Shown: positions 730-64,000 of the stretch, piece by piece
Position numbering within the stretch: the first letter of the stretch is position 1
Layout of the letters: each line of letters begins with the position of its first letter
Source of the DNA: a virus
Length of the DNA: 64,000 bases
Reading direction: 5' to 3' (one strand)
IMG/VR virus record: IMGVR_UViG_3300044970_001982
Span: 1-64,000 of that record
The notes under the pieces: generated by a model
Told to the model about the DNA's origin: nothing
The model's database searches: none
The model's input: the letters and a program-made list of their open reading frames with translations, nothing else
Program-made: the position numbers and the translations under genes

Positions 730-1527
730 TTATGATGTTATGCCAGAACCGACATTTAATTCTTCAAAACGTTTAGTAATTTGATTATCATAATCAGAAG
801 CTATTTCTGCAACGTGTTTTTGTATTAGACCGTTGCGTACTCGTTGAGCTGTTGATGGACCAATATGCTGCTTGTATATCATTTTTGGAATATATTTAAA
901 TTTAGTAGCTAAAAAAGTTCTAACGACTAATTCATAGTCATCTGCAACAATATAACTTGGATTATGACCATTTAACTGCCTATAAATATCAGCTCTCCAT
1001 GCTCTAACATGATTTGGTGCTGAAACAATATGTCTTATAGTAGTGGGATTAATTTCAGGTGCACGCATCGTCCAAACATTATGGTGTTCATCCCAATAAT
1101 CAGAACCATACCCAAAAGCCCAGCCATTTGGATATCTACCAGATTGACCATCTGGAAGGATTTCACACCAATCTGAATAAACAAATCCAACTTCTGGATC
1201 AGAAAACGCATCTACGACTAATGCCAGCGCGTCTGGAGTTAGTTCGTCATCATGATCTAATTCAACTAAAATATCACCCTCAGCTGCCATCATACACTGA
1301 CGCTTAACTTTTCCTATACTGCCAGAGTGAACGTGTGACTTATGAGCTATTAGTTTAAATCTTTCATCTGATGCAAAACCATATATCTGATTCCAGGCAT
1401 TGTTATTCGTTGAGTCGTCCCAAATAACCCATTCCCAATCGGTATAGGTTTGATTTTTAAGACTAGACCATGTTCTAGCTAGAATGCCTGGATCAGTATT
1501 ATAAACTGGCGTACAAATTGATATCAT
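730..1527 (-). CDS. GT2 (GT-A fold) glycosyltransferase
   Basis: ISICTPVYN...WDDS...ELDHDD (DxD)...ADDYEL motifs. Confidence 0.9.
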   Translation of the reverse strand: MISICTPVYNTDPGILARTWSSLKNQTYTDWEWVIWDDSTNNNAWNQIYGFASDERFKLIAHKSHVHSGSIGKVKRQCMMAAEGDILVELDHDDELTPDALALVVDAFSDPEVGFVYSDWCEILPDGQSGRYPNGWAFGYGSDYWDEHHNVWTMRAPEINPTTIRHIVSAPNHVRAWRADIYRQLNGHNPSYIVADDYELVVRTFLATKFKYIPKMIYKQHIGPSTAQRVRNGLIQKHVAEIASDYDNQITKRFEELNVGSGITS

Positions 1528-6043: not shown

Positions 6044-6721
6044 TTAGTCCTCTCTTTTATGGGCATTGATTCGAACCCAATTGTAGTCTCTAAAAGATTT
6101 TGGAAGTATATCTGGCTTATAACCAGTTTTCCATAGACAGTAAGGAAGACTTACCTGATCTTGATAAGACCATGCTATATTTTGTTCGTACCAAAGTTTA
6201 CCTAGTTCTTCTACCTGTTTATTTTTCATATCTCTAGCTGATACACCACATTCATATAATCCATAGTTTTCTGGAAAACCTTCAGACTTATAAAAAGATA
6301 CTTGCTCGTCTAATGGTTCATTTATATATTTTGCTGGTCTTATTGTTGACTCTCCATAGGCGCATGTCCTATTGTCAAAATGTGGCGATATAACAAATCC
6401 ATTTTCTAAATAAGAAAGTATCTCAGGAATAAATTCTTCCTTTAATATTTCCATATCACCATCTATCCATATTACATATTTATAGTTATTTAAAATATCT
6501 ATTGAGTGAGGATATAGTTTTGGTCTTTTGGATCTTCTTCTATTGTCAAGATGAGAATCTTCTAATATTATTTCTTTCCACGGATGTTCAATTTGAAACG
6601 GAGATTTTCCATCAGTAAAATATATATAATCAACATCATCAATAAACAACGATGATGCTCTATGATCATATCCACCTGTTACGGCAGTACACACTACTGT
6701 ATTATTCTTCCAGTCTAACAT
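6044..6721 (-). CDS. DUF616/TOD1-MUCI70-like glycosyltransferase
   Basis: TAVTGGYD, YFTD, K..PH, WIDG and DQVSLPY motifs. Confidence 0.8.
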   Translation of the reverse strand: MLDWKNNTVVCTAVTGGYDHRASSLFIDDVDYIYFTDGKSPFQIEHPWKEIILEDSHLDNRRRSKRPKLYPHSIDILNNYKYVIWIDGDMEILKEEFIPEILSYLENGFVISPHFDNRTCAYGESTIRPAKYINEPLDEQVSFYKSEGFPENYGLYECGVSARDMKNKQVEELGKLWYEQNIAWSYQDQVSLPYCLWKTGYKPDILPKSFRDYNWVRINAHKRED

Positions 6722-6725
6722 GATA

Positions 6726-7394
6726 TTACCTATAATTTATAGTTATTGGGTATGGCATGGTTTTAATAATATTTTCTGAATTAACAAAACAGAGTGGATG
6801 AAATATTTCTAACAAAATTTCTCCCCACTCTATAGGATAAGAAGTATGAACTGTATCGGCAGCTTCTCTAGGATGCTTTGCCGGATTTTGTTGCAGTTTT
6901 TCTAATTTAGAGTCCATTATTCTTAATAGTGTTGAATACCACATTTTGGTAAAATTAGTCTTAGGTTTAAAAATATATAAATCGTTACTTATTAAATGTG
7001 GCCAATATTTACCAAGCCATGGACGTTGCTTTACTGTTACTGAAAGCTCACCTTCGTCCTCTGGAGCACCTATTCCATAACAATCAGTTGATTCTAACTC
7101 ATCAAAATAAATATTCCAATTCCAAGAACATGGTTTAATATCAGTATATCCTCCACCATGGTTATGCATGAAGTATGTTCTAAGGTAATCTGCTTTATGT
7201 ACATCTGACAAATATTCAAATCCAGGGTGTAGAGGTTCTTCTGGCAATATGTACTCATCTAGATTATTATTATCAACTAAAACTACATTTACTCCCGAAT
7301 TGCGTCTAATTGATTCCAGGCCATTAAGTCTATTCTCGTTCATTACTGGATTGTTATGACCAACCCAAAAACAATATAAATTTCTATTTAACAT
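6726..7394 (-). CDS. DXD-type (GT32/capsule-synthesis-like) glycosyltransferase
   Basis: FWVG...HKADYLRTYFMHNHGGGYTDIK. Confidence 0.8.
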   Translation of the reverse strand: MLNRNLYCFWVGHNNPVMNENRLNGLESIRRNSGVNVVLVDNNNLDEYILPEEPLHPGFEYLSDVHKADYLRTYFMHNHGGGYTDIKPCSWNWNIYFDELESTDCYGIGAPEDEGELSVTVKQRPWLGKYWPHLISNDLYIFKPKTNFTKMWYSTLLRIMDSKLEKLQQNPAKHPREAADTVHTSYPIEWGEILLEIFHPLCFVNSENIIKTMPYPITINYR

Positions 7395-28663: not shown

Positions 28664-29299
28664 TCATGCTGGATTATATGTAGTCTTGCTAAGAGACAAA
28701 GTTTTGCCAAGATCTATAATTGACATATTTAGATTTTCCCAAACCTTTGACATTAAGGCTAAACCAAGAACTCCACAATCCATCAAGCAGTAATCTGCTC
28801 CGCCTTCAAACTCCGACAGCTGTGCATAGATGTTGTCTAACTTTTCGTAATAATTTGTGTAGGCAACGTTGATGACGTGAATGCTAGATCCAAAGTGTTT
28901 TTGGATTAGCTTTTTATCATGAAAACTAATAATAACACTTGGAGTATTTTTTACGAAATAGTTTACAGTACTTGTATAAATGTCTTTATTATTCATGTAA
29001 TAATATTCAAATATATTAGAATAATAATACTCTGCGTTTTTGTGTAGACCTATTTTATAGTGTTTGCCGTCTTCTATTTCTGGAACTAAAGTATGAGAAA
29101 TTGCTTTCATAACATTCTGCTCTGAGTTTTTCAGAGAAGCTACAACACTTTTGGCAAAATGACTAGGAAAAGAATTGTCTGCGTTTTTAGATAGCGCTAT
29201 GATTGAAGATTTGGGTACATTAATGTACGCAAACTTTTGCTTAGTATTCATAGCCAATGTTAACTTGGTTATGGATTGAGCTGGATTTAAACAAGTCAT
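28664..29299 (-). CDS. Putative GT-D-fold-like glycosyltransferase-related protein
   Basis: C-terminal NYYEKLD..LMDCGVLG..IIDLGKTL pattern; adjacent to a GT2 gene. Confidence 0.45.
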   Translation of the reverse strand: MTCLNPAQSITKLTLAMNTKQKFAYINVPKSSIIALSKNADNSFPSHFAKSVVASLKNSEQNVMKAISHTLVPEIEDGKHYKIGLHKNAEYYYSNIFEYYYMNNKDIYTSTVNYFVKNTPSVIISFHDKKLIQKHFGSSIHVINVAYTNYYEKLDNIYAQLSEFEGGADYCLMDCGVLGLALMSKVWENLNMSIIDLGKTLSLSKTTYNPA

Positions 29300-29309
29300 T
29301 TTATACCTT

Positions 29310-30002
29310 TCAGATGCCGAATGTTCCCCAGTTAATTAAAACTGGATCTTTATCAATAATAGAATTAATATGATTTAAATTGTGAAATTGACCACCATCA
29401 AGTTCTGAATATCTTTTATATTTAGCTAGTTTATCTTCATCATTAATATAGCCTAGGTGCTGCATAACTAAGCCTGACTCTATCCAGAAATTTCTCTGCT
29501 TAACCCAGTCTACTACGTATGTAGGTTCAGATCCACATGCTAACTTTCTATTAGCAAATCCTCCACCTTCAACAAATCTAAATATTCTAGAACTATTATT
29601 TGGAGTCCATAGTTTATCTACTCTATACTGCGTATCATTCCACATATGATAAAAGCGAACATTGACTACATCATATGGAGATGAAGCTAAAACTTTAGCT
29701 ATTTCTAAATTATCTATATGATATAACTTTTCGTCACAATCTATTGCAATAATCCAATCACCCTTTTTGGCAAACTTCTCCATATTTCCCCACGCATATG
29801 CGCGGAGCTTGCCCTCATGAGCTGCAAACAATGGCTCTGGAGTACGAAATACTTCTGCATATTTGGCAGCTATTTCTGGAGTGTTGTCGTCTGAACAATC
29901 ATCGGTAAAAATAATTTTATCTACTTGCGTAGATAGTCTTTCAAGTATATCTTCTAGAAATCTAGATGATTCATTTCTACCAATTACTTGTGCGTATATC
30001 AT
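29310..30002 (-). CDS. GT2 glycosyltransferase
   Basis: RNE..DDCSDDNT..WIIAIDCDE..HLGY. Confidence 0.85.
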   Translation of the reverse strand: MIYAQVIGRNESSRFLEDILERLSTQVDKIIFTDDCSDDNTPEIAAKYAEVFRTPEPLFAAHEGKLRAYAWGNMEKFAKKGDWIIAIDCDEKLYHIDNLEIAKVLASSPYDVVNVRFYHMWNDTQYRVDKLWTPNNSSRIFRFVEGGGFANRKLACGSEPTYVVDWVKQRNFWIESGLVMQHLGYINDEDKLAKYKRYSELDGGQFHNLNHINSIIDKDPVLINWGTFGI

Positions 30003-30054: not shown

Positions 30055-30078
30055 TAGCTTACGTCAGTATTTTGTATT

Positions 30079-30273: not shown

Positions 30274-30287
30274 TTCTAGCCTTTCGT

Positions 30288-31101: not shown

Positions 31102-31102
31102 T

Positions 31103-31501: not shown

Positions 31502-31502
31502 T

Positions 31503-32294
31503 CTAATCTCTTTCTATTCCTATGTAATCACATGCTTTTCTAAATATTTCTCTACTGACTGAAAATTTTGAATCAGCTTCTCCACCAACTGGTGATGACT
31601 TATGCCAACTATGACCTATGGATACGCTACCATCATAAACAACATTGTATCCACGATGTCTGGCAAAATATGAGCACCAAGTCTCTTCATAATAGTGAGG
31701 GGTTGGCAGAAATGCTCCTGTAGCGTTGGGGTATATTTCTCTATATTGAGGGTCATTTGTTAGAGAATCCCAAACCGATCTTCTGATAAAGTATGCTGAA
31801 CCAGACACTGTTACGCAGTTAACTCTATCTTTGTAAAGTAAATCTTTTGGATCGTGTTCTCTCCACGCCCTATGTTTTGGGGCAGTGTTACTTCCAATAA
31901 TTCCTGCGTGGGTTATGTGTCCAGCTTCGTCTCTTTGCTTTGGTCCAAGTATATGTATATCATTATTTTCAAGAAAAATATTTTCTATTTTAACCAGATC
32001 AGCGCTGCTCATCCATACATCTGAGTTTAAAAGAGCTATAATATCAGATTCTCCAGAAGCCGCTAACTGATTGCAGGCGGCAGAATATCCTATATTGTCA
32101 TTGTCATAGAATTTCTTTATTTTATATCTGCCATAATTATATTTTAACCAGTAAACACTATCATCTTTTGATCCATTATCCGCTATGTGCAAATTCCATA
32201 CCTTAGGCGTTTCATGAAGATCATGATGGAGACAGTCTAGAAACCTATTTAATAATGGCCTAGTGCCATAGTTTACTACGCAAAGATCTATCAA
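31503..32294 (-). CDS. GT2 glycosyltransferase (WbbL-like)
   Basis: VVNY..DNGSKD..NIGYSAACN..LLNSD..GSA..YYEE. Confidence 0.87.
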   Translation of the reverse strand: MIDLCVVNYGTRPLLNRFLDCLHHDLHETPKVWNLHIADNGSKDDSVYWLKYNYGRYKIKKFYDNDNIGYSAACNQLAASGESDIIALLNSDVWMSSADLVKIENIFLENNDIHILGPKQRDEAGHITHAGIIGSNTAPKHRAWREHDPKDLLYKDRVNCVTVSGSAYFIRRSVWDSLTNDPQYREIYPNATGAFLPTPHYYEETWCSYFARHRGYNVVYDGSVSIGHSWHKSSPVGGEADSKFSVSREIFRKACDYIGIERD

Positions 32295-32300
32295 ATTAAA

Positions 32301-32766: not shown

Positions 32767-32965
32767 TATCTTCTTTCTCACTATCTATTTTATAAAATGA
32801 AATATTATCTGTATCTGGTTCAAATGTAATAAAAAATATATTCTTGTCTTCAGGTTTATATCCTTCTGGCGGTGGAGTTTCCACTGCTATCTTTTTAGAA
32901 GAACAACCATATACTTGACTGTGATTTTTGTAGATTACTACATAATTAAGCTTTGATGCCGGCAT
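32747..32965 (-). CDS. Hypothetical protein
   Basis: 72-aa ORF in operon. Confidence 0.6.
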   Translation of the reverse strand: MPASKLNYVVIYKNHSQVYGCSSKKIAVETPPPEGYKPEDKNIFFITFEPDTDNISFYKIDSEKEDNVKEAE

Positions 32966-44608: not shown

Positions 44609-44618
44609 AATATTCTCT

Positions 44619-50200: not shown

Positions 50201-52695
50201 TAGTTTGCTTTTCCTGTAAAATTGAAGTTAAAGCTGTAAGGAACATCGCTTCCTTCATACATGGTATATAGGGACTTTAGTCTAAATGGATATGAATTAA
50301 ACCCTAAAGATGGACTTAATAAGTTTGTTAAAGATCTTGATGAACTACTATTAACTGGCCTTTCGAGCAATATATGTGGGCCCAAACCTAGTATTCTTGA
50401 CAACGATCTACTATATTTTTGCGTGTATGCATATAGTGGTCTTGTGGCTGGATTTGAAGAACTTGAAGTATTTATCTTATATAACGTATAAGAAGAAGGA
50501 ATATCTACAGAAGCAGAATTTGGATCAGCTACTTTTGTAGAGTCTTTAATTGTTACATCTGGATTAGTAATTTCAACATAGAATTCAATGTCGTCTACAG
50601 ATAATTCTTCTATTATTGACCTTTGGAATTGCGACATCTTTAATGTAAGCTGTGATTTAAAGTAGTCAAATATGCTTGTATTAGTAGATGCTGAATTTTT
50701 CGTTAAATTCCTTGCATAAAGAGACGTACTAGAGTTTATTGATATAAGATCAAAATCCGGCTTTTCACTGTCTTCAAGAGCTGAGGAATACATAACCCAA
50801 GAGGAAGACCAGTCTGTAATAAAATTGATTATTGAAGAGGCCAAACTTGTTTGTCTCATCGACAGAGCTTTGCAATACATGGCGTATGAGATGGAGTTAA
50901 ACAACAACTTGAATGGCCCTTCTATAACAGAAGAAAATAGAGTTGTACTACTATTAATTGTACCAAAATGTGATGTTCCATTATTAATATTTAATACTTT
51001 GTCTGGATTTGCAATATCATAAATACTGTTACAGTATGACATTAGCCCAAATGTTGTGGCTAATATATTTCCTTTTGTAAGGCTATCATTTTGACGCGGA
51101 TATGATAATAGAACGCCAATTGACTTAAGATCAGAAGAACTAGGTCCAGCTTTAACAAATGTATTTGAACTTACTGCATTAGCAAAGTACTTATAGCTTT
51201 TGGGTGAAACTCCATTTATTTTACTAGAGCCTATAACGCTATAATAATTTTTTTCAAATATTGTATCATTTATAGTCCATCCACCATTTTTTGTTGCATC
51301 AATACAGATACTGCTATCTATCATGTCAACATTATTGGCTACTACAGAAGATGTCATATTTAGTTGTCCTCCGGAGTTTACATTAGATGCATTAGGGCAG
51401 AAGGACAGGTCTAGGATAAGTGTTCCAAAATTATTGGCAACAAAGTTATTTATAAGACTAGCTTGACTAGAAGTTATTGTAGAGTCAGGAGACCAAAGAA
51501 GCACATCGAATTGACTTAACTGGGCTGAAGTAACTGAGTCTATATTTACTTTCCAATAATTAGCTAAAGATTTGTCTGTTAATGTCGTAAGTGGATTTTC
51601 AAATACAAGCTTAGTTAAATTAAATGGAGAATTTTCTAATCTATACAAAACGTATGGATTAATATTTTGATTTGTTGAGCCTGAATAAAGAATTCCAGCT
51701 TTGACAGTTCTTATTCTAACTGGAGAATCTGGATTAGAATCTATTTCATAATCTATGTCTTGTAAATTAATATTTCTTCTTATTTTTCCTATTATTCTCC
51801 AATTGAAAACTTCATAATTTCTATAGTCTTTAATTGCCTTGCTTGGTACAAGAGCTTGATATCCGTTTGTTATAGAAACATGACCTGTGTTTACACTGGA
51901 ATAATTTTCGTCAATCTTTTTAATTGAAAAATTTCTAGATCCATAATAATTAGGATCTATAACAAAAGACTCTTCTGGAATATTATTAAAGTATTTAACA
52001 GCATTTATAGTTTCTGTATATCTTAACTGTTGATTGCTAAATTTTCCGTTTTCATCAGATTCAACTTTATTGTACATTAACTTAAGGTTTAAAGGATAGG
52101 AGCTATCCAGTACAACTATAACTCTGTATGGTATTTCCTCTAGATTAACGTTTGCACTAGTTTTATATGGTTCTAATAGAATCTTATATTTTTTTCTATT
52201 TGTATTTAGATCAATATAATCTTTTCCAAATTCATCTAAAACCTTTATGCCAAGATTATATATTTGATCTTGGTCAGGAAGATTGTTGTAAGATGTAAAA
52301 TTAAAAATTGCAGGAGCGGCAGTAAAGTATCTACTTATATAAACATAGTGACCAAAATCGTTAGCGTTTATTTCGGTAGGATTCAGTGTTTCAGATACTG
52401 TTGGCCTGTGTAGAAATAGGTTACTTATCGTAATGTCATCAGTTGATAATACTGATGATCCGTTCATTCTTCTTAAGATTCCCAACTCATCTGCGTACAT
52501 TAGTTCTGCGTCATAGGATTCTTTTATTTTATTTTCTAGAATTGTTTCTGAAACATTTACTGTAACTATGTTATTTTTTGGAGAAATTGATTCTGATGTA
52601 TACCAAGATAAAACTGCTGCGTCTGCAGGAACGTTTGTTCCTATTTTGATTGCTTTTTCATTTTCGTTTGTAGTAATGTTGGTAAATTTTTTCAT
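47224..52695 (-). CDS. Large virion protein with an internal peptidoglycan-binding domain
   Basis: VKYIQYTLAAAGKYKGAIDGSYGPVTAQAVYNFQ; 1823 aa, beta-rich. Confidence 0.7.
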   Translation of the reverse strand: MKKFTNITTNENEKAIKIGTNVPADAAVLSWYTSESISPKNNIVTVNVSETILENKIKESYDAELMYADELGILRRMNGSSVLSTDDITISNLFLHRPTVSETLNPTEINANDFGHYVYISRYFTAAPAIFNFTSYNNLPDQDQIYNLGIKVLDEFGKDYIDLNTNRKKYKILLEPYKTSANVNLEEIPYRVIVVLDSSYPLNLKLMYNKVESDENGKFSNQQLRYTETINAVKYFNNIPEESFVIDPNYYGSRNFSIKKIDENYSSVNTGHVSITNGYQALVPSKAIKDYRNYEVFNWRIIGKIRRNINLQDIDYEIDSNPDSPVRIRTVKAGILYSGSTNQNINPYVLYRLENSPFNLTKLVFENPLTTLTDKSLANYWKVNIDSVTSAQLSQFDVLLWSPDSTITSSQASLINNFVANNFGTLILDLSFCPNASNVNSGGQLNMTSSVVANNVDMIDSSICIDATKNGGWTINDTIFEKNYYSVIGSSKINGVSPKSYKYFANAVSSNTFVKAGPSSSDLKSIGVLLSYPRQNDSLTKGNILATTFGLMSYCNSIYDIANPDKVLNINNGTSHFGTINSSTTLFSSVIEGPFKLLFNSISYAMYCKALSMRQTSLASSIINFITDWSSSWVMYSSALEDSEKPDFDLISINSSTSLYARNLTKNSASTNTSIFDYFKSQLTLKMSQFQRSIIEELSVDDIEFYVEITNPDVTIKDSTKVADPNSASVDIPSSYTLYKINTSSSSNPATRPLYAYTQKYSRSLSRILGLGPHILLERPVNSSSSRSLTNLLSPSLGFNSYPFRLKSLYTMYEGSDVPYSFNFNFTGKANYTVNATYKGKKEIDIPVGPKPATLPAENVKSGIDDYQTSRSTNVADASNIFPYTGDIDIHGDPRIWVQGSPTHEYVKYIQYTLAAAGKYKGAIDGSYGPVTAQAVYNFQVANNQRFKDYKVDSETKWYLALVWLIKRAFEGQKALDDWKAFATPDIRKYISKVETMSLAPDVNSGRPYRKITFTGTVGPKLGADILFMQVPSSMINVTGITITPDQQDARWRNFKVVSVGWGPTFETNIFKYSKLEALNLSAASGDINIPINNLEANSCRYIIVGIEGLAISPGFGQGEGFGISGIKINGTVDGGTETGYEDENTPISVDVEVVFSTSISDLSPSVPKNLNVRNVNELSRLSNYITSLSFGNSTIEIDEGELEIGSDGFENSRIKVESFTNSTGSVTLSNLSVSNIRTSTGAEVSSNAVSYTNTSNTITFDTSATYYGTSLVRTQPIDLSSNFRLKTLSGNILPSGKNTINYGDGVLLLCNDAGAPVGLPTYSQIRAAIDASTYQNISSQETDLRYGYFSVYNELPDDGIRYGFYDVSERKFLGNYINYIDLYSRSGEAFSRSSANIYIAICALDADGQSGDGEFFGLNNTNTFIPSRVPLKYLVPVYSVKYKSNTSINVGSISQNISKFDTWELPVSNGSFNKEIYIDPNIKWHDWKWNYMGQRLVGQYSTLDTPNIAWSTVFGYGYYDVVDENPSIIDTKTIQVRRAPIVAWNHPTDNLNSIVGIIKPEIKIYTRESISSAWVEVDYSIIKDVNCYTGLISFKKAIVPSSRSLIKVNYSTENNNLLLREVDGFPIPLNPLLNQETIRFDKPLYIYILPNNVYRYANYNESLLNGIPVSSLAYEKIDDYSYNSGINFTYDSSIFDSTSINYNPFALTIAVIYVTNKPNSIATNFVDLRVRGGGLRGDLDNSEILDSLNNNSLTEEYDVLSYWDVYPPQGNTYNRGGYVIIQIPQEVKENFVDPKQIYDVIRNNLTAGVVFDLQDLEGNSWS

Positions 52696-55600
52696 CAGTA
52701 TTCCTCATGATCCGGATGCAATAGCGAGTAGTCAACGACTATATTTGGAGTTGTTCCCATTATTCCCATCTGATACTGTGTATATTTATTTAACATAGTC
52801 CATACTGGGGGTTGCCAGTTTGGTGTTGTATCTAATGAATATAGTACCGATGGATTAGTGTGGTTGTAAACAAAATTAGGAGTTGCTATTAGCTCTGAAT
52901 TGTCTTGCTTGTTTACTGTATATATGTTTGGAAGCGGGATATCCGATTCATTGCTATATTGAATTGGGTCATAGGATTCATACCAATATATAACATCTCC
53001 AGCTATAGTAACGTCTGTTGAATCAACAGTTTCCCCATCTTCTTCTAAAAGATTTCGAACAATTTCATCATTAACTATATTAACTCTAGCAAACCAATAT
53101 CCTGGAGCGCCAACTTCCTGTGAAGTCATTGCAGTATCTATTTCAAAACTACCATCAGCCTGTGAGGTAATTAAATAATCTGGTGTTGCAGCAAAGAGGT
53201 CTTTTAGGGTTCTTGCCTTATTCCAAGCTATCTGAACTTCGTGGTTAAATGAATCATTTTTCCACAATATTTTTCCAGATATTCCTATTGAGCTAACTCC
53301 GTCGGCATTTACTATAAAATCTGTGGGAGCTGCTTTTATCCAAACTCTATTTGGTTCAGTTCTTCTAATATTAAAGGGTATACTTTCAACGTAAGATCCT
53401 GTCTGGCTATTAGATCCACCATTTGGTGTAGCCGATCCTATACCAGTAATGGTAATTGTTGAAGAAGTTACCTCGGCTGGCTGAGGACCTGTATATCTTA
53501 TGAGTGTTTTTGCTAATCCATTATCATTCGTTGTTACATAATTTGGTGTAGCTAATATTAGGTTACCTGAAATTTCAAAAGTTTGACCAGGCTTTATGTT
53601 ATCATTTTCATCATAAGAAACTATGGAGAGGTGCATTATGTCAGAGTATGCGTCGGAGATATACCCTGGAGATAGGTATGTTTCTGTATGAGAGAAATCA
53701 TATTCACTTAATGATACATAAACATACCCCTCATCAATGGGGTTAACATCTGGGCTTACATCTAAATCTATTGTCTGAGTATTGTCATTAATTGCTGATT
53801 CATATGTAATTGAATATATTTCTTCATAGTTAGGTGTTGTACTAAAGTAAATATATGTATTATATTCATCGTTTACAGAATCATAAACACGATTATCTAT
53901 ACTCCATGCCTGATTAACTGTATAAGTTACTTCATATTCTCTTCCAATAATTGATGGAGTTGACTGATCGAAGCACTCTAGCTTATTTGTTGCGGTTGAT
54001 AAATCTGAGAATAATATTTCGCCAGTATATTTATCTGCAACCGTAATATTAAATACATCTTCATAGGCTAAGTATAGCGAGTTGCCAAAATTCCCATAAA
54101 CAGACTCTGTATTTACAAAGGATAAATTACCAGGTGTTGCGCTATCTTCAAAAACTATATTTCTATACTGTGTTTCATGAACATTAACAATAATTGGAGA
54201 TCCGTTGGTAGGCGTAGAGTTCAACTTTATAGAGAAGAATTGACCATTAAATGTCTCTGTAACTGGTTCTGAATAAACGTAATATTCATCTTCATTTAAG
54301 AACAGATGGCCAGTGTGAATTGCTCTTCTCTTGGCCATTAGTGCAGCTGTGTCTTTTTTAGCATGCAAAGAGACTTCTATTGAATCAGAGTTTTCTACAG
54401 CGTTGTTTATGTTTTCAACTAGTTGATCCTTATTTTCTACGTATACAATAATATCATTTGTATCAGAAAGAAAGTTAATGTCTTTAATATCATATATATA
54501 TTCCAAGTTCAAATTAAAACTATTTGAATCTAAATTAATAGTCTTTAAAAATGTGTCTGAGTTGAAATAAGAAACTAAATATTGTTCCTCATTTTCATAA
54601 ACATTATCTAAAGAATCTATAAATCCACTGAACAACTGAGGTGTTGTTTGCGCTGAAAAAGAAAAATATTCCTCTCTATATAGAGGATAATAATTTCCAG
54701 ATGCCGACTCAAATTTAATATAACTTGGAGTAGATGAGAAGTTAATTGTTGCAGAATCAAAATACTGCGGAGTGGTTAGCTGAACTCCACTTTCATCATA
54801 AAATGAGTATAATATATTTGGCGAAGATGGAACAAGATATCTATTATTGTCTACAAAATCAACAACAGCACCACCAGCAGTGTTGTTAATTATATTGTCT
54901 GTGCCAAAGTAAGCCAACCCTACTGGTGCAGCAGAATTAATATACAAATACTCTGGAGTAGCGTTAGGTGGATATATGATTAGATCAACTAGATCATCTA
55001 CATATATAATTGGTGTTGTTAAACTCTGCTCAAACCTACTATTTCCTTCGTTCAAGTACACATAAGAAGATATTTGGTTAGTGTCTTGAATAAAGACATC
55101 ATCATTATATATGGTAGATCCTATTCTAAGATTAACATTATCTGCAGTTATATTTGGAGATGCTATAGATGTTTCTGTTCCAGCAGAAGGATTTACATAG
55201 TAGTTTGGAGTGGATAGATTAAATCCCCCCCAATAATCGCCAATGTCAATAGTTGTATCATAATCTTGAGTTAGATAATCCCAACCACCATTAGAAAATA
55301 CTATCTTAACTTGAGATACATCTTCTATAGATATAGAAGAGAAATTAGGGGATGATGGGTTGTTGTATACTTCATTGTATGTTTTATCTCTAAACTCAAT
55401 ATCATTTAAAGTATTACCTTCTTGCGTGAATATCTTAATAAGATTAAATTCTGGACTTGATACATGATCCTGTCCATATCTATTGTAAACATAAAAATCT
55501 TCTCTATTCAAATAGTTAAGATTTGCATAGAATGTCGATGGAGTGGCGTAATTTGCATGCGCTTTGGTTGTTACCTCATAGGTAAGCCCAACTCCACCAT

Positions 55601-57263
55601 CTATACTTTCTACTGAATAACTACTTGCTGTTTGCAAGTAAGATAGATACCAAGAAAAATCTAACTTAATTGGATTATAATAAGTTTTGTCAGCGCTTCT
55701 GTATACACCAGATATCTCAGCATAGCCGTCAAAAGATATGGTAGATTTTTCTACTGACTCAACTATAAGTCTTGCATCAGAGAAATCTCCAATACCAGGT
55801 TGATATAGATCTGTTAATGGAGAAGATGCCGCATCATATATTGCAGATATTCTAGATACGCCTTCATTTTCCATTCCAGCGTAATCCCAGATTCCCTCTT
55901 CCCATCTTACGTATCCAATATTTGTGGGATATCTTTTATTTATGTCTAATACTATGTCTTTAAATTTTTGAAGAGGTATTCCAGAATCACTAAAATATGG
56001 AGTTGATACTTCCATATCTGAAATTTCAATAATTTCTGGAGTTGCACCTGCGTAGTCAGAGTCTGGAGTAGCTCCATACGCTTTCCATATGTCCAGTTCT
56101 CGTCTTAAGGTTCTTTGAAGTGCTTCTTTGTATACTCCAGGTAAATTTCTGTAAACGTCTAATATTCTCTTTTTATATCTCGAATTATCTTCAAGGAATA
56201 ATCTTGGCAGACCGACTCTGACTCCAAACTCATCAAAAATATTAAAAACATTTGTTGGATATTGATCAAACGCAATTCCATTAACCAATAAAGAATCATA
56301 TTGTCTAATGGTTAAAATTTGCTTATCTATAGGATTATAGAAATACGCATGATCTGTTGGTTTTAAGTTGTAAAAATAACCAAGATCATGAACTGCAGAT
56401 AGCTTTACGCCATCTCCAACTACACCAATTACATTGACGGGAATATTATACGAAACATAAACCCAGGTTAATATTTCCTCATTCGCGCTTGCTATATAAT
56501 TATTTATATTTTGTAAATCTATTTTAGTTACAAATTGATCTATAGAATCTTGCAAAAGTGCTGAAAGGAACTTTCCTCCAGAAGAATTTGGAGTAGCTGT
56601 ACTTGGTGTAGCATTTTCTTCTGAGTCTTCAAAAAGCGAAGTCCATGTAGGGAATCTTCTTAATATATTTTTAGTATTTTGAGATACTACAGGAGACGTA
56701 ATATCGTGAATGCCAATCTCTAAATAAAATAGCAAACCTAAGTCAGATGTATTTCCAGTTTCTGTAAATATTTCTAACTCAATTTTAATCCAAGGCTTAG
56801 AGTTTCTAATAAATATTGCATTAGAATCAAAGGAAACTTTAGACTGAAGCCATGGACCATTTTCTTCGTCTGATTCATATATTTGAATATTAAAAGTTGG
56901 GACTTCGTCTCCGGCAACATTGGTAAATGTATGCTTATAGGCTAAGATATCTATTCTAGAACTTGTATCTACGAACCTGAGTAAGTCAGGGGTTGCAGCA
57001 TCATATATAACTTCTCCGGCATCTGTCATATAAACAGAGTTCTGGACTAATGGTGTTGCGTGGTCTTCCGAGAAAGAGGGGGAGGTTAACTCTATTCCGG
57101 TATAAATATTGTCACCAATAAGGTTTAAGCCATATCTAGACCGAGTGTATGAATAGTTGGTATAAGCTGTATTATGGTACAGGTTAATTGGATTACTGGT
57201 CCAGACATTACTGGACTTATTAAAATCTGAACTTCTCAGAAGTAACAAATATTGTTTCATCAA
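52695..57263 (-). CDS. Large baseplate wedge/tail protein with dispersed Ala-Thr-Pro motifs
   Basis: Follows baseplate J; FDEFGVRVGLPRL..EDN..YK.RIL wedge-like motif; C-terminal Ig-like segments. Confidence 0.7.
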   Translation of the reverse strand: MMKQYLLLLRSSDFNKSSNVWTSNPINLYHNTAYTNYSYTRSRYGLNLIGDNIYTGIELTSPSFSEDHATPLVQNSVYMTDAGEVIYDAATPDLLRFVDTSSRIDILAYKHTFTNVAGDEVPTFNIQIYESDEENGPWLQSKVSFDSNAIFIRNSKPWIKIELEIFTETGNTSDLGLLFYLEIGIHDITSPVVSQNTKNILRRFPTWTSLFEDSEENATPSTATPNSSGGKFLSALLQDSIDQFVTKIDLQNINNYIASANEEILTWVYVSYNIPVNVIGVVGDGVKLSAVHDLGYFYNLKPTDHAYFYNPIDKQILTIRQYDSLLVNGIAFDQYPTNVFNIFDEFGVRVGLPRLFLEDNSRYKKRILDVYRNLPGVYKEALQRTLRRELDIWKAYGATPDSDYAGATPEIIEISDMEVSTPYFSDSGIPLQKFKDIVLDINKRYPTNIGYVRWEEGIWDYAGMENEGVSRISAIYDAASSPLTDLYQPGIGDFSDARLIVESVEKSTISFDGYAEISGVYRSADKTYYNPIKLDFSWYLSYLQTASSYSVESIDGGVGLTYEVTTKAHANYATPSTFYANLNYLNREDFYVYNRYGQDHVSSPEFNLIKIFTQEGNTLNDIEFRDKTYNEVYNNPSSPNFSSISIEDVSQVKIVFSNGGWDYLTQDYDTTIDIGDYWGGFNLSTPNYYVNPSAGTETSIASPNITADNVNLRIGSTIYNDDVFIQDTNQISSYVYLNEGNSRFEQSLTTPIIYVDDLVDLIIYPPNATPEYLYINSAAPVGLAYFGTDNIINNTAGGAVVDFVDNNRYLVPSSPNILYSFYDESGVQLTTPQYFDSATINFSSTPSYIKFESASGNYYPLYREEYFSFSAQTTPQLFSGFIDSLDNVYENEEQYLVSYFNSDTFLKTINLDSNSFNLNLEYIYDIKDINFLSDTNDIIVYVENKDQLVENINNAVENSDSIEVSLHAKKDTAALMAKRRAIHTGHLFLNEDEYYVYSEPVTETFNGQFFSIKLNSTPTNGSPIIVNVHETQYRNIVFEDSATPGNLSFVNTESVYGNFGNSLYLAYEDVFNITVADKYTGEILFSDLSTATNKLECFDQSTPSIIGREYEVTYTVNQAWSIDNRVYDSVNDEYNTYIYFSTTPNYEEIYSITYESAINDNTQTIDLDVSPDVNPIDEGYVYVSLSEYDFSHTETYLSPGYISDAYSDIMHLSIVSYDENDNIKPGQTFEISGNLILATPNYVTTNDNGLAKTLIRYTGPQPAEVTSSTITITGIGSATPNGGSNSQTGSYVESIPFNIRRTEPNRVWIKAAPTDFIVNADGVSSIGISGKILWKNDSFNHEVQIAWNKARTLKDLFAATPDYLITSQADGSFEIDTAMTSQEVGAPGYWFARVNIVNDEIVRNLLEEDGETVDSTDVTIAGDVIYWYESYDPIQYSNESDIPLPNIYTVNKQDNSELIATPNFVYNHTNPSVLYSLDTTPNWQPPVWTMLNKYTQYQMGIMGTTPNIVVDYSLLHPDHEEY

Positions 57264-57276
57264 TTAACCTTAATTT

Positions 57277-58446
57277 TTAATAAACTGAAGTACCCATTAT
57301 AACAGAATTTACCGTTATAGTTCCAGCTGCTAAGTATTTTTTAACACCATCTGGAGTATAATCTGTCAAAGGAATTTCTCTTCCATCAGCTGTCATTGCA
57401 GTTATTACTACACCCCTAATGTAGTCGGAAGCTGTCTTTATTTGACGCTCTAACTCACCAACGGAGAGAGTTTCTCCAACAGATAGAGAATTTAAATACC
57501 TTTTAACGAATAGCACAGATTGATTTCGTATACCAGCTGCCAATGTTTCGTTTACTCCCATAGGAATTCTTATTGTATAAGACAATCCTATCCCAACTTT
57601 TTCGGCTATTCTTACATTAAATTTAACACCAACTGGTTTTACTTGTGAAGTTGCAAGTATGATGTTTTGAGGTAAATTTGATAAGGCTGAAGAATTTTCA
57701 GGAACAACAATAATGTCACAAGAACCAACCCCATAAGATCCTTCTCTAATTTTTACATCCCTAACACCTCTAACAGACAAGGCTGCGAAGCGTACGGACT
57801 CAACTGTTCCAACAGCTTTAGACTTTATAGATGCTACTATTCTTCTTCTATAATTAGAATCTGACTCTGAATTTACATTTGAATAAACTTCTTTTGGATT
57901 ATTACAAAACAGTATTACTCCAGCTGGAGAAAAAAAGCTATGTTTAGTTAGCGAATTAACTGGTGCAACGTAGGCATTGTCAGTGAAATTTGGCTCTACT
58001 CTACCATAAGCTTTTAGATTTCCCCTGGCGATAGTGACGTCTCCAACTAGCTTAAATGAATACTGTTTTGTAACAAAGTTGCTAACATCATTGTAAACAA
58101 GTGTTCCGCTAGGAATTAGTACATCAGAGCTGTGAGCTTTATTTATAAAAAATTCTATATTGAAAGACTGTCTATCTTCTGCGGAATAATCTGTTATAGT
58201 TTTTCTTTGTATCCCATAAAGATCGCCAATAAGGTCTAAATTTTTTCCAGAAGCTGTCAGTAAGTTATTTTGATTAATATTAAATCTAAGAGACTCATAA
58301 AGGTCAGATATTTCAGAAGTAAATGCCTCAGCAAACGCTCTAGCTATCGACCCTGGATATATCGCAGTAATTCCTGCGTCTTTCTGGAGTGAGTTTAGTA
58401 CATTTACTAAAATATCAGACTTATTTTTAATACCGTATACAGTCAT
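57277..58446 (-). CDS. Baseplate J-like wedge protein
   Basis: GSIARA, ASGKNLDLIG..YG..R, IPSGT, ESDSNYRRR, GT..S. Confidence 0.88.
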   Translation of the reverse strand: MTVYGIKNKSDILVNVLNSLQKDAGITAIYPGSIARAFAEAFTSEISDLYESLRFNINQNNLLTASGKNLDLIGDLYGIQRKTITDYSAEDRQSFNIEFFINKAHSSDVLIPSGTLVYNDVSNFVTKQYSFKLVGDVTIARGNLKAYGRVEPNFTDNAYVAPVNSLTKHSFFSPAGVILFCNNPKEVYSNVNSESDSNYRRRIVASIKSKAVGTVESVRFAALSVRGVRDVKIREGSYGVGSCDIIVVPENSSALSNLPQNIILATSQVKPVGVKFNVRIAEKVGIGLSYTIRIPMGVNETLAAGIRNQSVLFVKRYLNSLSVGETLSVGELERQIKTASDYIRGVVITAMTADGREIPLTDYTPDGVKKYLAAGTITVNSVIMGTSVY

Positions 58447-59850: not shown

Positions 59851-62130
59851 TTACGGATTAGTAAACAATTGACCATTCAGCCATTGATCAATGTATGGCC
59901 TAGACCAAACTGTATCTCCAAATGTAGCTGGGTCATCACGATAAACGGCTTTGACCCATTCTTTAAGATCATTTTCTGTTTTTCCTATAGTTTTATAAAC
60001 CTCTACACAATGCACAAACTGTACACCGCTTATCCATCCATAAGGTTGCTTCCCCCTATAGTCTCCCCATGCCCCAAATTGATAACCATTAGAAGGTTGG
60101 GTTCCCAATCTCTGTAGGCCAAACTGAGGAGGCTGTCCAGTTCTAAATGTATATAAAGCCCATGCCTGATTAATCGGTATCCAAAATCTATGATCAACCA
60201 ACTCTCTCATGATCTCTACAGTTGCATTGTAACTTCCTGTATAAAATCTTAGTGTTTCATATTTTTCTGTCATAACTCTATTGTAGTTATCTATGGTTGG
60301 TTTTGTTTCTCCAGGAAAAACAGTGTCCCAGTTTTTAATTGCAATTTGCCAACCTTGAAGAAGTTCTTTACCATTAGAATCTGTTAATTCATATGTTTTT
60401 TTTCCATGAGCTGCTCCAGATGAGGCGCTGGTGCTAACTTCACCTTGTCTATTTTTTCTATAACCACCAACTCCCATGTTTATTTGAAAAATACCTAAAG
60501 ACATAAAGTCTCCACTAAGTGCATTTGGATTGCATGATGTTGGGTGGCCATTACTTTCTCTAACTATAATTCCAGCAAATATAGCAGCTACTTCATCAGA
60601 GAAAGCTGTTGTCCTTAACATATTAAATACATCTAAACGAGTTAGCTCAGCACCCCAGTCACCATAATAATTTTTTCTTATATTCTCTGGAGTTGGATTA
60701 TATGGAACAACGCCTATTCCTGGAATTTCCACATTTATAGTCCCATACGTAGATGTCCCTCCTGATGTTCCTGTACCAGTATTCGTTCCAGCAATTGCCA
60801 TTGCTCCTCCAGGGCCAACATATCTACCAGATCTCATACCGCTAAAACTAAGGTGTATGTGATTTCTATGGTCAGCATCTCCCATAAAGTTAATATACTC
60901 TAGATATGGTTTATTTAACTTTAAAGCAGATGTCATTGGTTCAAGGCCAGAATCAAGAAGTCCATAATCAGAAATTAAATCACTACTAACAACAACCAGA
61001 TCTGGCAATAGATATTGGGGAACCTCAGCCAAAGCTTCAATTAATATTTGAACAGCCTTATCGTAGGTTTCTTTTGGCGGAATAGTAGATAGTTCTATTA
61101 TTTCTCCATTTATTTTTCCAACCCGCTTAATATCTATTGCTCTACCAAAAACATGATCGCTTAAAAATGTCCTGTCTTTTCCTGCTGCAACAGCTTTGTC
61201 ATAATATCTTTGCGGACTTCTTCCAGCATCTAAGCCACCACCTATGTATATATTTTTTTCATGCATAAGTAACAAAAATTCTATTAAGGCTGGGCATATA
61301 TATGCGTTTGCTCCGCCACCAGGTGAGTCTAAAATTACATCACTTGATAAAAATCTTTCTTCACTAGGAATTTTTGCGTCAGGGAAGAATGTATCTTCGC
61401 CATTACCTATTCTTATTGGTCCATTCGCCCATTCATTTGGAATGTCAAATCTAAATCCACCTATTTTAGCGTTGTCTGAAATAACTGACTCATATTTACT
61501 TCTAAGAAGTGTTAATCTTTCTTGAAACCAGGCGTTTTCTTCTGCTGACAATTCTGATATATATGCAACATTTCTTTTTCCAGCGCTTTGCATTTCTGCA
61601 CTTGGCTGACCTGCATTTCCGTTTTTAGAGTTATTTCCACTATCGCCAGTTGCTGCAGATTCTCCAAGTTTTCTTTCAATTTCAATCTGCTGCATATTTT
61701 GTATGGACTGATCTACGAATGAGGCTCCTAGGTTTTTTCCGGCTATAGATTGAGCTATTATTCTATTATAGGCTGCGGCACCAGTTAATTTTATACTATC
61801 TTCACTTTCATATTGTGTTTCAGGATTGTTAACGGGTTGATCAAAAGATTCGCTAGCAACAGATGCTCCACCAGTTATTAGTGTATTAAGTGAAGTAGAC
61901 ACAGACATACTTAAAGCTTTTGTTGCGTATTTTGGATGCCTATTAAAGATATCTCCATTTATCATGGAGCTAACAGTTGAGGTACTTAAGGTTCTACCTA
62001 AAACTGGAGCAGCTTTTGAAGCGCTTGTATTTTTTACTGGAGACTTTCCACCAGGATAATAATCATTAAATACTGTATTTGCAAAAGATACAGAATCAGA
62101 CAGAGCTGCATTATTAATATTAAAACTCAC
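59851..62130 (-). CDS. Tail-associated lysin: M15-like peptidase plus lytic transglycosylase
   Basis: SDHVFGRAID..HRNHIHLS; RESNG..SLGIFQIN. Confidence 0.75.
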   Translation of the reverse strand: MSFNINNAALSDSVSFANTVFNDYYPGGKSPVKNTSASKAAPVLGRTLSTSTVSSMINGDIFNRHPKYATKALSMSVSTSLNTLITGGASVASESFDQPVNNPETQYESEDSIKLTGAAAYNRIIAQSIAGKNLGASFVDQSIQNMQQIEIERKLGESAATGDSGNNSKNGNAGQPSAEMQSAGKRNVAYISELSAEENAWFQERLTLLRSKYESVISDNAKIGGFRFDIPNEWANGPIRIGNGEDTFFPDAKIPSEERFLSSDVILDSPGGGANAYICPALIEFLLLMHEKNIYIGGGLDAGRSPQRYYDKAVAAGKDRTFLSDHVFGRAIDIKRVGKINGEIIELSTIPPKETYDKAVQILIEALAEVPQYLLPDLVVVSSDLISDYGLLDSGLEPMTSALKLNKPYLEYINFMGDADHRNHIHLSFSGMRSGRYVGPGGAMAIAGTNTGTGTSGGTSTYGTINVEIPGIGVVPYNPTPENIRKNYYGDWGAELTRLDVFNMLRTTAFSDEVAAIFAGIIVRESNGHPTSCNPNALSGDFMSLGIFQINMGVGGYRKNRQGEVSTSASSGAAHGKKTYELTDSNGKELLQGWQIAIKNWDTVFPGETKPTIDNYNRVMTEKYETLRFYTGSYNATVEIMRELVDHRFWIPINQAWALYTFRTGQPPQFGLQRLGTQPSNGYQFGAWGDYRGKQPYGWISGVQFVHCVEVYKTIGKTENDLKEWVKAVYRDDPATFGDTVWSRPYIDQWLNGQLFTNP

Positions 62131-64000
62131 TAGATCACTCTCCTTGGCATAAGGGCTGATTCTTCTGCAGAAATAACAGACTCAGATTCTATCTGCACTT
62201 GCTTAGCGTATACTTGAGCTAAATTATTGGATACTAGTTCCCAGTTTAATGTAACTGGATATCCATCTTCATAATATTCATCCCAGAATATAGTAGGCCA
62301 TTCGCTTGTTTTTTCGTAAGTTGCGTTTAAGATTCTGTATGCAACTAGAGCATTATACAGTTTAACTACGTCATCTTCAGATATTCCATAATTGGTCTGA
62401 GCGTTGTCTCTTAAATATTCGGGAGCAAAGTAAGACAATTTACTATTAATAATTTCATTATATATTGAAAGTTTCTTTACATTCATTGGAGAATCTTCGT
62501 AAATTCCCTTAAAGAACTCTAAACATATAAGATTATTAATTGAGTCTACACTTCCTATATTTTTTTCTTTATTCTTTATAAAGCAGGATGTAACAAATTG
62601 TTCGGCCTGTTGAACAACTGATTCGGGCTGGTAATACCAAATTGTGCCCAAAACTCTTTCTGATGCGGTGACGTCCTTGGCATAATTTGCCACTGTATTT
62701 TCATTTGCACCGGGTTGAAATTGTTGCTCAAATATAACATCATCAGTTGCTGAGTTACTTATTTTTGTTCTAAGAACAAATATTCTATTCTTAAGCTTTT
62801 CTTCTGTATAGAGTTTTGCCCTTCCACCAGGAGTACTTATTGAAGTAAGCTGCGTTTGATTATCTTGATTACCTGGTTCATTTGGAATGCCGCCAACTCT
62901 AATTGTATTAGTTTCTCCAGTATTTATTCCATCAAATCTAACCTTAAATGTAGATCCAGAAATTATATCTTGAACCCAGAAAGTGTCACCGTCAATAAAT
63001 TCGGTAACTTTTACGATCACCCTGAATAGTGATGGTTGGAGATCTGCTTTTTCTGGACCAAGACCGCTTAATTGCAAAACTCTTGCGTGTGTTATTGCAT
63101 TTTCATAGTCTATATGTCTAACTAAATCTTTTATTTCTACTTCTTGCCAGCCAAGACTCTTTAATAAATCGTCACTTCTAATGAATACATTTCCTTCTGG
63201 AGTTTTTACTTTAGTTCTTGCTCCCAACAAACCTGGAAGAAGTGCCTTGGAATGATATCTACCTACAACCATGCCTTGATTATATGACAAGCCGGCATCC
63301 ATTGGCTGGCCATTCTTATTTAGGTATTGTATATAACAACCATGCTGATCAAGTACGTTGTCCCTAATCCATTTCCAGCCCTTCCAAGCTAGCTGTCCAA
63401 CTATAGGAAGTGCAATTGCTGCGGCTGCTCCGCCTGCTGCAGCTGCTATTAGGCCAGAACCAGCTATTAATCCACCAGCAACTGCCTTAAATCCAGTATC
63501 TGAACCACTCTTATTTGCGTCAATTAACTGTTGAGCTTTTTGTGGTAATGTTAATGCAGTTTGATTAGCCATAATATCTTTAACTAAAGATGTAGATCCA
63601 TGCGTATATTCAATTCCACCCATCATTTGTGGCATTAGGGCATCTGATAGGGCGTCTACTGATATATCACCGCCAACATTTATTCCAGTATTTGACGCCA
63701 TAATATTGTCTATATAGAATCTAGTATCATTTCTAATATTTTGTAGCCCCAGCCAGGATCTTAACCATGAAGATAGGAACCAGCGCGATGGGTCATTAAC
63801 AGTAACTAAAGCGTTGGGTGTAATTGATGTTATGTAGCCCATTTCCGGAGTAAAGTGATGAACAACCTGTTCAACTTCAAATAGTCCATACATTCTTTCA
63901 TAGACGTCTGAGAGATATACTAGGTCATGCGGTCTAATATCTGCATTTCCTATGATGATTAGTTCGCCACCATAAATATCTTTAATAGATTCTTTTAGGT
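62130..64000 (-). CDS. Baseplate hub-like protein with C-terminal staphylococcal-nuclease domain (5' end outside window)
   Basis: Frame is open to 64000: GELIIIGNADIRPHDLVYL..YGLFEVEQVVHHF (hub motif); later IDGDTF..VRFDGINTGE..ERVLG. Confidence 0.7.
   Translation of the reverse strand, partial: LKESIKDIYGGELIIIGNADIRPHDLVYLSDVYERMYGLFEVEQVVHHFTPEMGYITSITPNALVTVNDPSRWFLSSWLRSWLGLQNIRNDTRFYIDNIMASNTGINVGGDISVDALSDALMPQMMGGIEYTHGSTSLVKDIMANQTALTLPQKAQQLIDANKSGSDTGFKAVAGGLIAGSGLIAAAAGGAAAAIALPIVGQLAWKGWKWIRDNVLDQHGCYIQYLNKNGQPMDAGLSYNQGMVVGRYHSKALLPGLLGARTKVKTPEGNVFIRSDDLLKSLGWQEVEIKDLVRHIDYENAITHARVLQLSGLGPEKADLQPSLFRVIVKVTEFIDGDTFWVQDIISGSTFKVRFDGINTGETNTIRVGGIPNEPGNQDNQTQLTSISTPGGRAKLYTEEKLKNRIFVLRTKISNSATDDVIFEQQFQPGANENTVANYAKDVTASERVLGTIWYYQPESVVQQAEQFVTSCFIKNKEKNIGSVDSINNLICLEFFKGIYEDSPMNVKKLSIYNEIINSKLSYFAPEYLRDNAQTNYGISEDDVVKLYNALVAYRILNATYEKTSEWPTIFWDEYYEDGYPVTLNWELVSNNLAQVYAKQVQIESESVISAEESALMPRRVI

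Follow-up and report, generated by a model that had tools for sequence, protein, structure and literature searches.

Dispersed Ala-Thr-Pro motifs in a phage baseplate wedge protein, a candidate recognition site for virion glycosylation

The baseplate protein and its motifs

The DNA analysed here, hereafter the window, comprises the first 64 kb of the 109.1-kb IMG/VR virus record IMGVR_UViG_3300044970_001982 (G000; estimated completeness 52%), and our subject is a minus-strand gene within it for a baseplate wedge protein, P0001, that carries many dispersed Ala-Thr-Pro tripeptides (ATP in one-letter code). Related near-complete genomes span 194-211 kb, and the group is one of large, uncultured, contractile-tailed phages of ~200 kb. 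The open reading frame (ORF) at 52695-57263 has 1522 residues and begins with TTG followed by ATG; the homologs open with MKQY, which makes the ATG at 57260 the probable true start. Because a Baseplate_J (gp6/gpJ-like) wedge gene adjoins P0001 immediately upstream on the same strand, we place P0001 in the baseplate operon, where it occupies the gp7/gpI position. Its sole profile match is phrog_21059 ('virion structural protein', E 1.9e-14); no Pfam family matched at an E-value of 0.01 or better, and a sequence search found no relative in the PDB. Residues 187-486 align with ORF162 of Bacillus phage 0305phi8-36 at 23-25% identity (tblastn with ORF162 and its relatives, E 1e-15 to 7e-8; BLASTP, E 2e-12), and P0001 is a homolog of the ORF162/phrog_21059 baseplate wedge family.

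ATP occurs 13 times in P0001 (residues 69, 90, 218, 223, 398, 407, 573, 768, 1042, 1238, 1278, 1359 and 1460), and with five STP and six TTP the short motif reaches ~24 copies versus fewer than two expected. The composition of P0001 predicts 0.29 ATP (Poisson p 1e-17 for the 13 observed), 20,000 shuffles of the protein never yielded more than five, a first-order Markov model predicts 2.9, and ATP ranks first in enrichment among all tripeptides of the protein. The residue before Thr-Pro (TP) is Ala in 13 cases, Thr in six and Ser in five, so that all 24 are Ala, Ser or Thr (p 3e-16), and seven of the ten Ser-Pro dipeptides are likewise preceded by one of these three. Preferences outside the core tripeptide are weak, with Ser/Gly before it, Asn/Ser after it, and then alternating hydrophobic residues. 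The large proteins that neighbour P0001 contain 0-1 ATP each. A first-pass annotation made from the letters of the window had listed 13 ATP contexts and about 11 STP/TTP in this protein, lying in non-repetitive surroundings with varied codons, had estimated less than one ATP by chance and had noticed at most one in each neighbouring large protein; all 13 contexts are present in the translation, and the counts above and the repeat and codon analyses below agree with it on the remaining points.

Three trivial sources of the excess were considered and rejected. Codons at the motif sites vary at all three wobble positions, and across four genomes the pattern GCN-ACN-CCN occurs 28-45 times in frame 0 versus 0-9 times in frames 1 and 2; since the nucleotide pattern is enriched in the sense frame only, the signal lies at the protein level and not in the DNA. 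A BLAST search of P0001 against itself found no internal repeat, the spacing between motifs is irregular (5-175 residues), and the sequences flanking the sites resemble one another hardly more than those around random positions do (1.17 out of 16 versus 1.05 +/- 0.06), which speaks against a cryptic sequence repeat. A composition artefact is contradicted by the shuffles and the Markov expectation, by the range of genomes that carry the excess (33-50% GC), and by motif-less proteins with a similar Ala, Thr and Pro content.

AlphaFold2 (AF2) models built from family alignments cover residues 1-980 and 961-1522 of P0001, with a mean predicted local distance difference test score (pLDDT) of 80 and 76.5, respectively. 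Residues ~990-1420 are modelled at a pLDDT of 80-94 (model m3a9a2eef9c8d), and Foldseek matched the C-terminal part to InvE, intimin D0-D1 and InvD at E 1e-7; the N-terminal 980 residues gave no significant Foldseek match. The Thr or Ser of 28 of the 31 [AST][ST]P sites falls in predicted loops, while loops make up 57% of all residues, and the distance from a site to the next strand is not fixed. A C-terminal tail with a pLDDT below 50 carries the final three sites of the protein. The annotation had expected the motifs in surface loops: the loops are seen in the models, and the exposure stays a prediction. With regard to the cryptic structural repeat that it had named as a refuting condition, neither a sequence repeat nor a fixed register relative to the strands was found.

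Conservation, turnover and loss of the motif

The ATP excess of P0001 is confirmed as a real, highly non-random and conserved trait of this large uncultured phage group. It is kept in 231 of 236 distinct full-length homologs, which reach down to 22% identity and come from genomes of 33-50% GC, and is present both at 33-37% and at 48-50% GC. All 120 homologs found in a first search (36-92% identity) hold 6-17 ATP versus 0.15-0.8 expected, the genes that are complete in a set of 80 IMG/VR loci reaching down to 32% identity hold 6-20, and the tier-2 homologs (22-28% identity), retrieved in a profile search with N-terminal fragments, together hold 757 versus 36.9 expected, with an excess in 59 of 64. 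Near-invariant positions in P0001 are 90, 218, 398, 407, 420, 573, 602, 813, 1042, 1142 and 1504. Among 88 aligned sequences, the columns of the last sites keep Thr in 64 and Pro in 77 (site 1460), Thr in 75 (site 1479), and Thr in 85 and Pro in 83 (site 1504), and at site 701 Ser (42) and Thr (42) interchange. In a site matrix of 28 diverse homologs there are 106 motif columns, ~12-15 of them ancient and 35 private to one sequence; therefore, roughly half of the sites of each protein are lineage-specific. The [AS]-T-P tripeptide is thus enriched 20-45 fold in the homologs and is both conserved and turning over, as in a sequon-type motif.

About a quarter of the homologs (P0012, P0018, P0022, P0032, P0066 and others) exchange the C-terminal third for modules with the precomputed Pfam assignments PF07603, PF14312, PF02018 or PF17164, which suggests that the C-terminus of the family is a swappable, probably host-recognition part; these swapped-in modules carry 9.9 motifs per 1000 aa, as dense as the conserved part. 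At the other end, many distant relatives have the first 50-140 residues of the baseplate protein outside the main open frame (L022, L025, L029, L033, L036, L049 and others); in G003 (L085-L095), for instance, a separate 147-aa ORF lies 240 nt upstream of a 1311-aa ORF (41259-45876). Such a displaced N-terminal segment could reflect a split gene, an insertion or a frameshift. The tier-2 homolog P0133, on a 255-kb contig, is deposited at NCBI as HJS83577.1, an 'invasin domain 3-containing protein' of a 'Nitrososphaera sp.' metagenome-assembled genome (MAG); the contig is probably of phage origin and was binned with an archaeal MAG.

Outside P0001 the 109-kb record holds 15 ATP versus 5.9 expected, ten of them in six structural proteins at 88.8-100.3 kb. 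The tripeptide enrichment test that the annotation had proposed, extended to five other proteomes (three near-complete and two distant genomes), ranks the baseplate homolog as the most ATP-enriched protein in each. The next rank belongs, in G001, G002 and G006, to a 257-aa protein encoded beside the capsid gene, which comes third in G003. In alignments of four genomes, ATP is invariant at three sites of this head-module protein, [AS]TP is kept at two sites of a 539-aa sheath-like protein, and it occurs twice in the C-terminal tail of a 320-aa protein (LATPN...ATPN), while the flanks diverge in all three; the 539-aa and 320-aa proteins are neck or sheath-like. The sheath conserves W..ATPS in the three true orthologs compared, the fourth aligned sequence not being an ortholog. 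On the other hand, a 3745-aa hub, a 2220-aa tape-measure-like protein and a 1549-aa polymerase-like protein have no ATP in ~7500 residues, although these three giants of the tail module are encoded beside the motif-rich baseplate gene (G000 62130-85142, of which 62130-64000 lies in the window); they are probably internal in the virion. G003 encodes in addition, at 101457-105320, an accessory 925-aa fibre-like protein whose repeat units (..NNSGEGATPTISI.., ATPTFTG) contain eight ATP, and a 125-aa protein with three; together the two flank a gene for an oxygenase of the prolyl 4-hydroxylase (P4H) type, dependent on 2-oxoglutarate and Fe(II) (2OG-Fe(II); 104236-104844).

Relatives that do without the motif are of two kinds. 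In the outgroup, phage 0305phi8-36, the tail and baseplate module (~16,000 aa) has three ATP versus 2.7 expected, and [AST]TP is missing from ORF162 altogether; the alignment leaves a gap in ORF162 opposite 11 residues of P0001 that include sites 218 and 223. The fold therefore does not need the motif. Five full-length tier-2 homologs (P0171, P0175, P0182, P0194 and P0195) have 0-1 ATP and 2-8 TP. Counted over the first 1000 residues of the 236 homologs, [AS]TP occurs once in each of these five proteins, twice in none and 3-17 times in the others. In a FastTree phylogeny of the N-terminal 1000 residues, the five motif-less proteins fall deep inside the motif-rich clade, with P0182 sister to the motif-rich P0161 at 99% local support, and P0195 on a long branch whose placement is unsure; from this nested position we conclude that the loss was secondary and possibly repeated. 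At nine core columns these five proteins retain Thr in 2 of 43 cells versus Pro in 21 and Ala/Ser in 20, and GATPEI at site 407 has become GAYPEF, GAYPEI, AAHPEV or GALPEV. Their Ala, Thr and Pro contents are ordinary, so that composition does not explain the loss. When the motif-less alignment was used to scan IMG/VR and JGI metagenomes, every relative retrieved was motif-rich, and IMG/VR did not yield the motif-poor homolog P0103. Unusual acidity marks some of the motif-less proteins (Asp+Glu 17.5% in P0182 and 23.4% in P0194 versus 10-15% in motif-rich sisters), a hint that a shift of environment or host may have accompanied the loss of the motif.

At least 15 independent sites are thus kept together and lost together, which points to one external selective agent and not to a purely local structural role, and the near all-or-none pattern argues for one trans-acting reader. 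That the motif represents independently selected short sites, as the annotation had proposed, accords with the position conservation, the new sites in lineages and modules, the sites in other virion proteins, the motif-free outgroup and the nested loss; that these sites are read by a trans-acting factor is well supported by the comparison of sequences.

A purely structural explanation needs no outside reader. The Ser/Thr would cap a turn (an ST-turn or one of SPXX type), the Pro would stiffen it and the small residue would pack, and the lineage would reuse this element to build and stabilise loops in beta-rich virion proteins. The many sites that are position-conserved across the family are in line with it, as are the Ser/Thr interchange at the same columns, the preponderance of sites in loops, the weak alternating hydrophobicity after the motif, the frequent retention of Pro where Thr is lost, and the ATP within classical repeat units of the G003 fibre-like protein. 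However, the same fold manages without the motif in ORF162, and the nested subclade lost nearly all its sites together while the protein remained full-length and alignable. Moreover, the unrelated swapped-in C-terminal modules are equally enriched, a 45-fold excess in one protein goes with a few fixed sites elsewhere and none in the giants, and the sites show no consistent register relative to the strands. A structural element of this kind is an unlikely explanation, yet one to be taken seriously.

Alternatively, a shared non-enzymatic partner could dock at the motif, contacting the baseplate protein through many of its loops and the sheath, neck and head proteins at a few sites; an assembly chaperone, a prolyl isomerase, a fibre, or a decoration or cement protein would be examples. 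The evidence for a trans-acting reader (several folds, turnover, near all-or-none loss) applies equally to such a partner, the C-terminal tail of the 320-aa protein resembles a linear docking motif, and P0001 has its final three sites in a tail modelled at low confidence. However, a tripeptide can contribute little energy or specificity to the binding of a stable structural partner, such a partner would have to be very abundant to fill 24-31 sites per chain, no candidate for it was identified, and the strong preference for Thr over Ser, together with the specific purging of Thr in the motif-less clade, fits an acceptor hydroxyl better. We consider docking improbable.

Candidate enzymes

The features discussed are collected in Table 1. 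The annotation had counted at least five glycosyltransferases (GTs) in the window and linked the motif to them. The count was roughly right, four genes passing the Pfam cut-offs and two, the Caps_synth gene (6726-7394) and the GT-D-like gene (28664-29299), falling just below. The link is not supported, since the three accessory genes do not track the motif and the three core genes sit among nucleotide genes.

Table 1. Coordinates of the baseplate genes, regions of P0001 and glycosyltransferase genes (window coordinates unless G000 is stated)
Feature	Position	Strand	Evidence and remarks
P0001, 1521/1522-aa baseplate wedge protein	52695..57260	minus	ORF translation; 24 [AST]-T-P and 7 [AST]-S-P sites
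P0001 residues 187-486, core common with Bacillus phage 0305phi8-36 ORF162	55806..56705	minus	Sites 189, 218, 223, 398, 407, 420, 480
P0001 residues ~990-1420, predicted string of Ig-like (invasin/intimin-type) beta-sandwiches	53004..54296	minus	AF2 and Foldseek; seven TP sites (1016-1359)
P0001 C-terminal tail, residues ~1434-1522	52698..52964	minus	Low-confidence prediction; strongly conserved sites IATPNF, TPNW, GSTPN
Baseplate_J (gp6/gpJ-like) wedge gene	57277..58446	minus	Pfam PF04865 E 5e-9; phrog_6 E 2e-33
Accessory GT2	730..1527	minus	Pfam E 3e-17; found in closest relative G001 only
Accessory GT-like pair: TOD1/MUCI70-like (6044-6721) and weak Caps_synth (6726-7394)	6044..7394	minus	G001 only
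Core GT pair: GT-D-like (28664-29299) and GT2 (29310-30002)	28664..30002	minus	Pfam; in all compared genomes
Third core GT2	31503..32294	minus	Pfam; 65-81% identity in G001-G003
259-aa GT-A gene, head module	G000 102075-102854, outside the window		~2.5 kb from the capsid gene

The accessory genes (730-1527, 6044-6721 and 6726-7394) were rejected as the reader because they have no homolog in the motif-carrying genomes G002 and G003. The core pair is conserved in G001-G003 at 41-79% identity for the GT-D-like protein and 66-78% for the GT2 at 29310-30002, the latter also at 54-58% in distant tier-2 genomes, and the two fall into the atlas clusters of viral GT2 and GT-D. The sole PDB sequence match of this GT2 is GmaR, the Listeria flagellin O-GlcNAc transferase (E 1.3e-6). 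The neighbourhood of the core trio (28664-33425) comprises genes for a nucleoside 2-deoxyribosyltransferase-like protein, a denV-like pyrimidine-dimer glycosylase (Pyr_excise), SNase, dCMP deaminase, ThyX and RNR. Phage GT-A enzymes in such nucleotide-gene neighbourhoods (next to ThyS/5mYOX) glycosylate DNA (10.1101/2023.12.21.572611). By analogy, the three core GTs may modify DNA, in a candidate DNA sugar-hypermodification cluster; neither a ThyA-type hydroxymethylase nor 5mYOX turned up near the trio, no search having been aimed at them. The core trio are ambiguous candidates for the reader.

Judged by its sequence and distribution, a small GT-A gene in the head module is a better candidate reader than the GTs of the window. 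The 259-aa protein has invariant DSD and QGED motifs, the sole PDB match of its profile is the procollagen galactosyltransferase COLGALT1 (E 1e-8), and among the 120 homologs listed out of 258 most carry a precomputed PF13704 assignment. All six motif-rich genomes examined carry it in the same position (43-79% identity). The motif-less outgroup 0305phi8-36 has no homolog of it and no GT2 in its genome; both the head-module GT-A and the core GT2 therefore occur in all motif-rich genomes examined and not in 0305phi8-36, a single phylogenetic contrast. No cultured phage with a close homolog of the head-module GT was found in the phage collection.

Enzymes of other types fared less well. A phage-encoded Ser/Thr kinase was rejected as the reader, since no Pkinase gene was found in the five genomes examined. 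P4H-type oxygenase genes (PF13640) number two in G001 and seven in G003, and none was found in G002, which is 100% complete and motif-rich, in G005 or in the 109-kb record; a phage-encoded P4H is an unlikely universal reader given its absence from G002. Another covalent modification of the motif, whether hydroxylation of its Pro by a P4H-type oxygenase, with or without glycosylation (in plant glycoproteins Pro is hydroxylated at Ala/Ser/Thr-Pro), or Pro-directed phosphorylation of its Thr by a host kinase, is very improbable: it is true that PF13640 genes occur in G001 and G003, one of them between the two accessory ATP-rich genes described above, and that the closest solved relative of the head-module GT acts on a hydroxylated collagen residue, but the oxygenases were not found in the genomes just named, no Pkinase gene was found in the five genomes, and the motif-less clade keeps Pro far more often than Thr, which suggests that Thr is the functional residue.

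A possible virion glycosylation system and its known counterparts

We propose that [Ala/Ser]-Thr-Pro, sometimes with Ser for Thr, would serve as a short recognition site on the loops of the baseplate wedge protein, and at one to three fixed places in the sheath, two neck/sheath-like proteins, the 257-aa head-module protein and the capsid protein. In the cytoplasm, before or during assembly, one trans-acting factor would read it. This reader would most likely be an enzyme that modifies the Thr hydroxyl, with O-glycosylation as the leading candidate reaction and the head-module GT-A (G000 102075-102854) as the best candidate enzyme; other phage GTs may extend the glycan, and the outcome would be a densely decorated baseplate periphery. 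We infer the trans-acting factor, its enzymatic nature, the sugar and the responsible gene alike. To this reading as a whole, a recognition site with one reader, candidate Thr O-glycosylation and the head-module GT-A, we assign a rough probability of 0.45, and that the reader is a glycosyltransferase, judged from the sequences, is a plausible suggestion at somewhat less than even odds. More tentatively, the phage group could encode its own cytoplasmic, sequon-directed virion O-glycosylation, in which the small head-module GT-A places sugar at 20-30 sites of the wedge protein and at one to three sites in each of the other outer virion proteins, and lineages that lose the enzyme or change host shed the tags wholesale.

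Several points weigh against this proposal. The association of GT and motif hangs on the one contrast with 0305phi8-36, the head-module GT stays below the curated thresholds of local Pfam, and the conserved GTs of the window sit in a nucleotide-metabolism module, a setting in which phage GT-A enzymes are known to glycosylate DNA. No cultured member of the P0001 clade was found in the phage collection. Furthermore, Ser/Thr followed by Pro is a common element of loops and turns, and a purely structural role is possible given the position-conserved sites and the A-S/T-P-x-F found in classical tail-fibre repeats.

For N-X-S/T and a handful of O-linked systems in bacteria, glycosylation at sequons is well understood; to our knowledge, almost nothing has been learned about virion glycosylation in phages other than mycobacteriophages, and a sequon has yet to be described for any phage. 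In the present case, the comparison of sequences by itself yields a candidate tag of three residues, the proteins that bear it as substrates, a short list of enzymes that may read it, and lineages that amount to natural knock-outs. If the proposal is true, the tag would offer a compact, orthogonal cytoplasmic O-glycosylation site for protein engineering, and it would show phages decorating the apparatus by which they recognise hosts, which would bear on adsorption, stability and recognition. Should the motif serve structure or docking instead, it would be an unusually clean case of an element of only three residues that selection maintains, over deep divergence, at 20-45 fold above chance.

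Among known proteins, ORF162 of 0305phi8-36, a low-copy virion protein, has the same place in the baseplate operon as P0001, after the gpJ/gp6-like gene, which we take to be the wedge position of P2 gpI and T4 gp7. It differs in its length (372 aa versus 1522 aa) and in having no [AST]TP, and its genome is without GT2 or a homolog of the head-module GT. The phage tail fibre repeat of PF03406 type has the consensus A-S-P-x-F-T-G-x-P-T-A-P-T, and its A-[ST]-P followed by an aromatic residue resembles ATPNF, ATPNY and ATPDY in P0001 and ATPTFTG in G003. However, P0001 has no Pfam match, periodicity, internal repeat or F-T-G-x-P-T continuation, and its bias after the Pro is weak; we therefore rejected P0001 as a repeat of this type, there being no profile match and no periodic units, and the spacing being irregular.

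On the side of the enzymes, GmaR (for the core GT2 at 29310-30002) and human COLGALT1 (a GT25 enzyme; for the head-module GT-A) are both protein O-glycosyltransferases of GT-A fold and are the only sequence relatives with solved structures. The similarity covers the nucleotide-sugar-binding half only (~90-115 residues), so that acceptor specificity cannot be read from it; the acceptor of COLGALT1 is hydroxylysine, not Thr.

In mycobacteriophages of Che8 type, phage GTs reportedly glycosylate the capsid and tail-tube subunits of the virion, and we know of no short dispersed sequon described for them. One abstract infers capsid glycosylation from two phage GTs. The common theme is that of phage-encoded GTs decorating virion structural proteins, but there the glycans are on the capsid and tail tube, whereas in the present, unrelated group of ~200-kb myophages a defined tripeptide is borne mainly by a baseplate protein. 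The general O-glycosylation of Bacteroidota acts in the periplasm on many proteins at the sequon D-(S/T)-(A/I/L/V/M/T), with a lipid-linked glycan. It shares with the candidate [AS]-T-P system a three-residue sequon of Ser/Thr type and differs in the sequon itself and in its periplasmic location, phage virion proteins being folded and assembled in the cytoplasm. A further counterpart is Haemophilus influenzae HMW1C (NGT), a soluble GT41 enzyme that reportedly N-links sugar in the cytoplasm at ~30 dispersed Asn-X-Ser/Thr sequons of HMW1. Like P0001, HMW1 is a very large, beta-rich protein with a similar number of sites in dispersed, non-repetitive contexts. In that system the linkage is to Asn, the enzyme is of GT41 and the substrate is an adhesin, whereas here the candidate acceptor is the Thr of [AS]-T-P, the candidate enzyme is a small GT-A and the substrate would be the phage virion.

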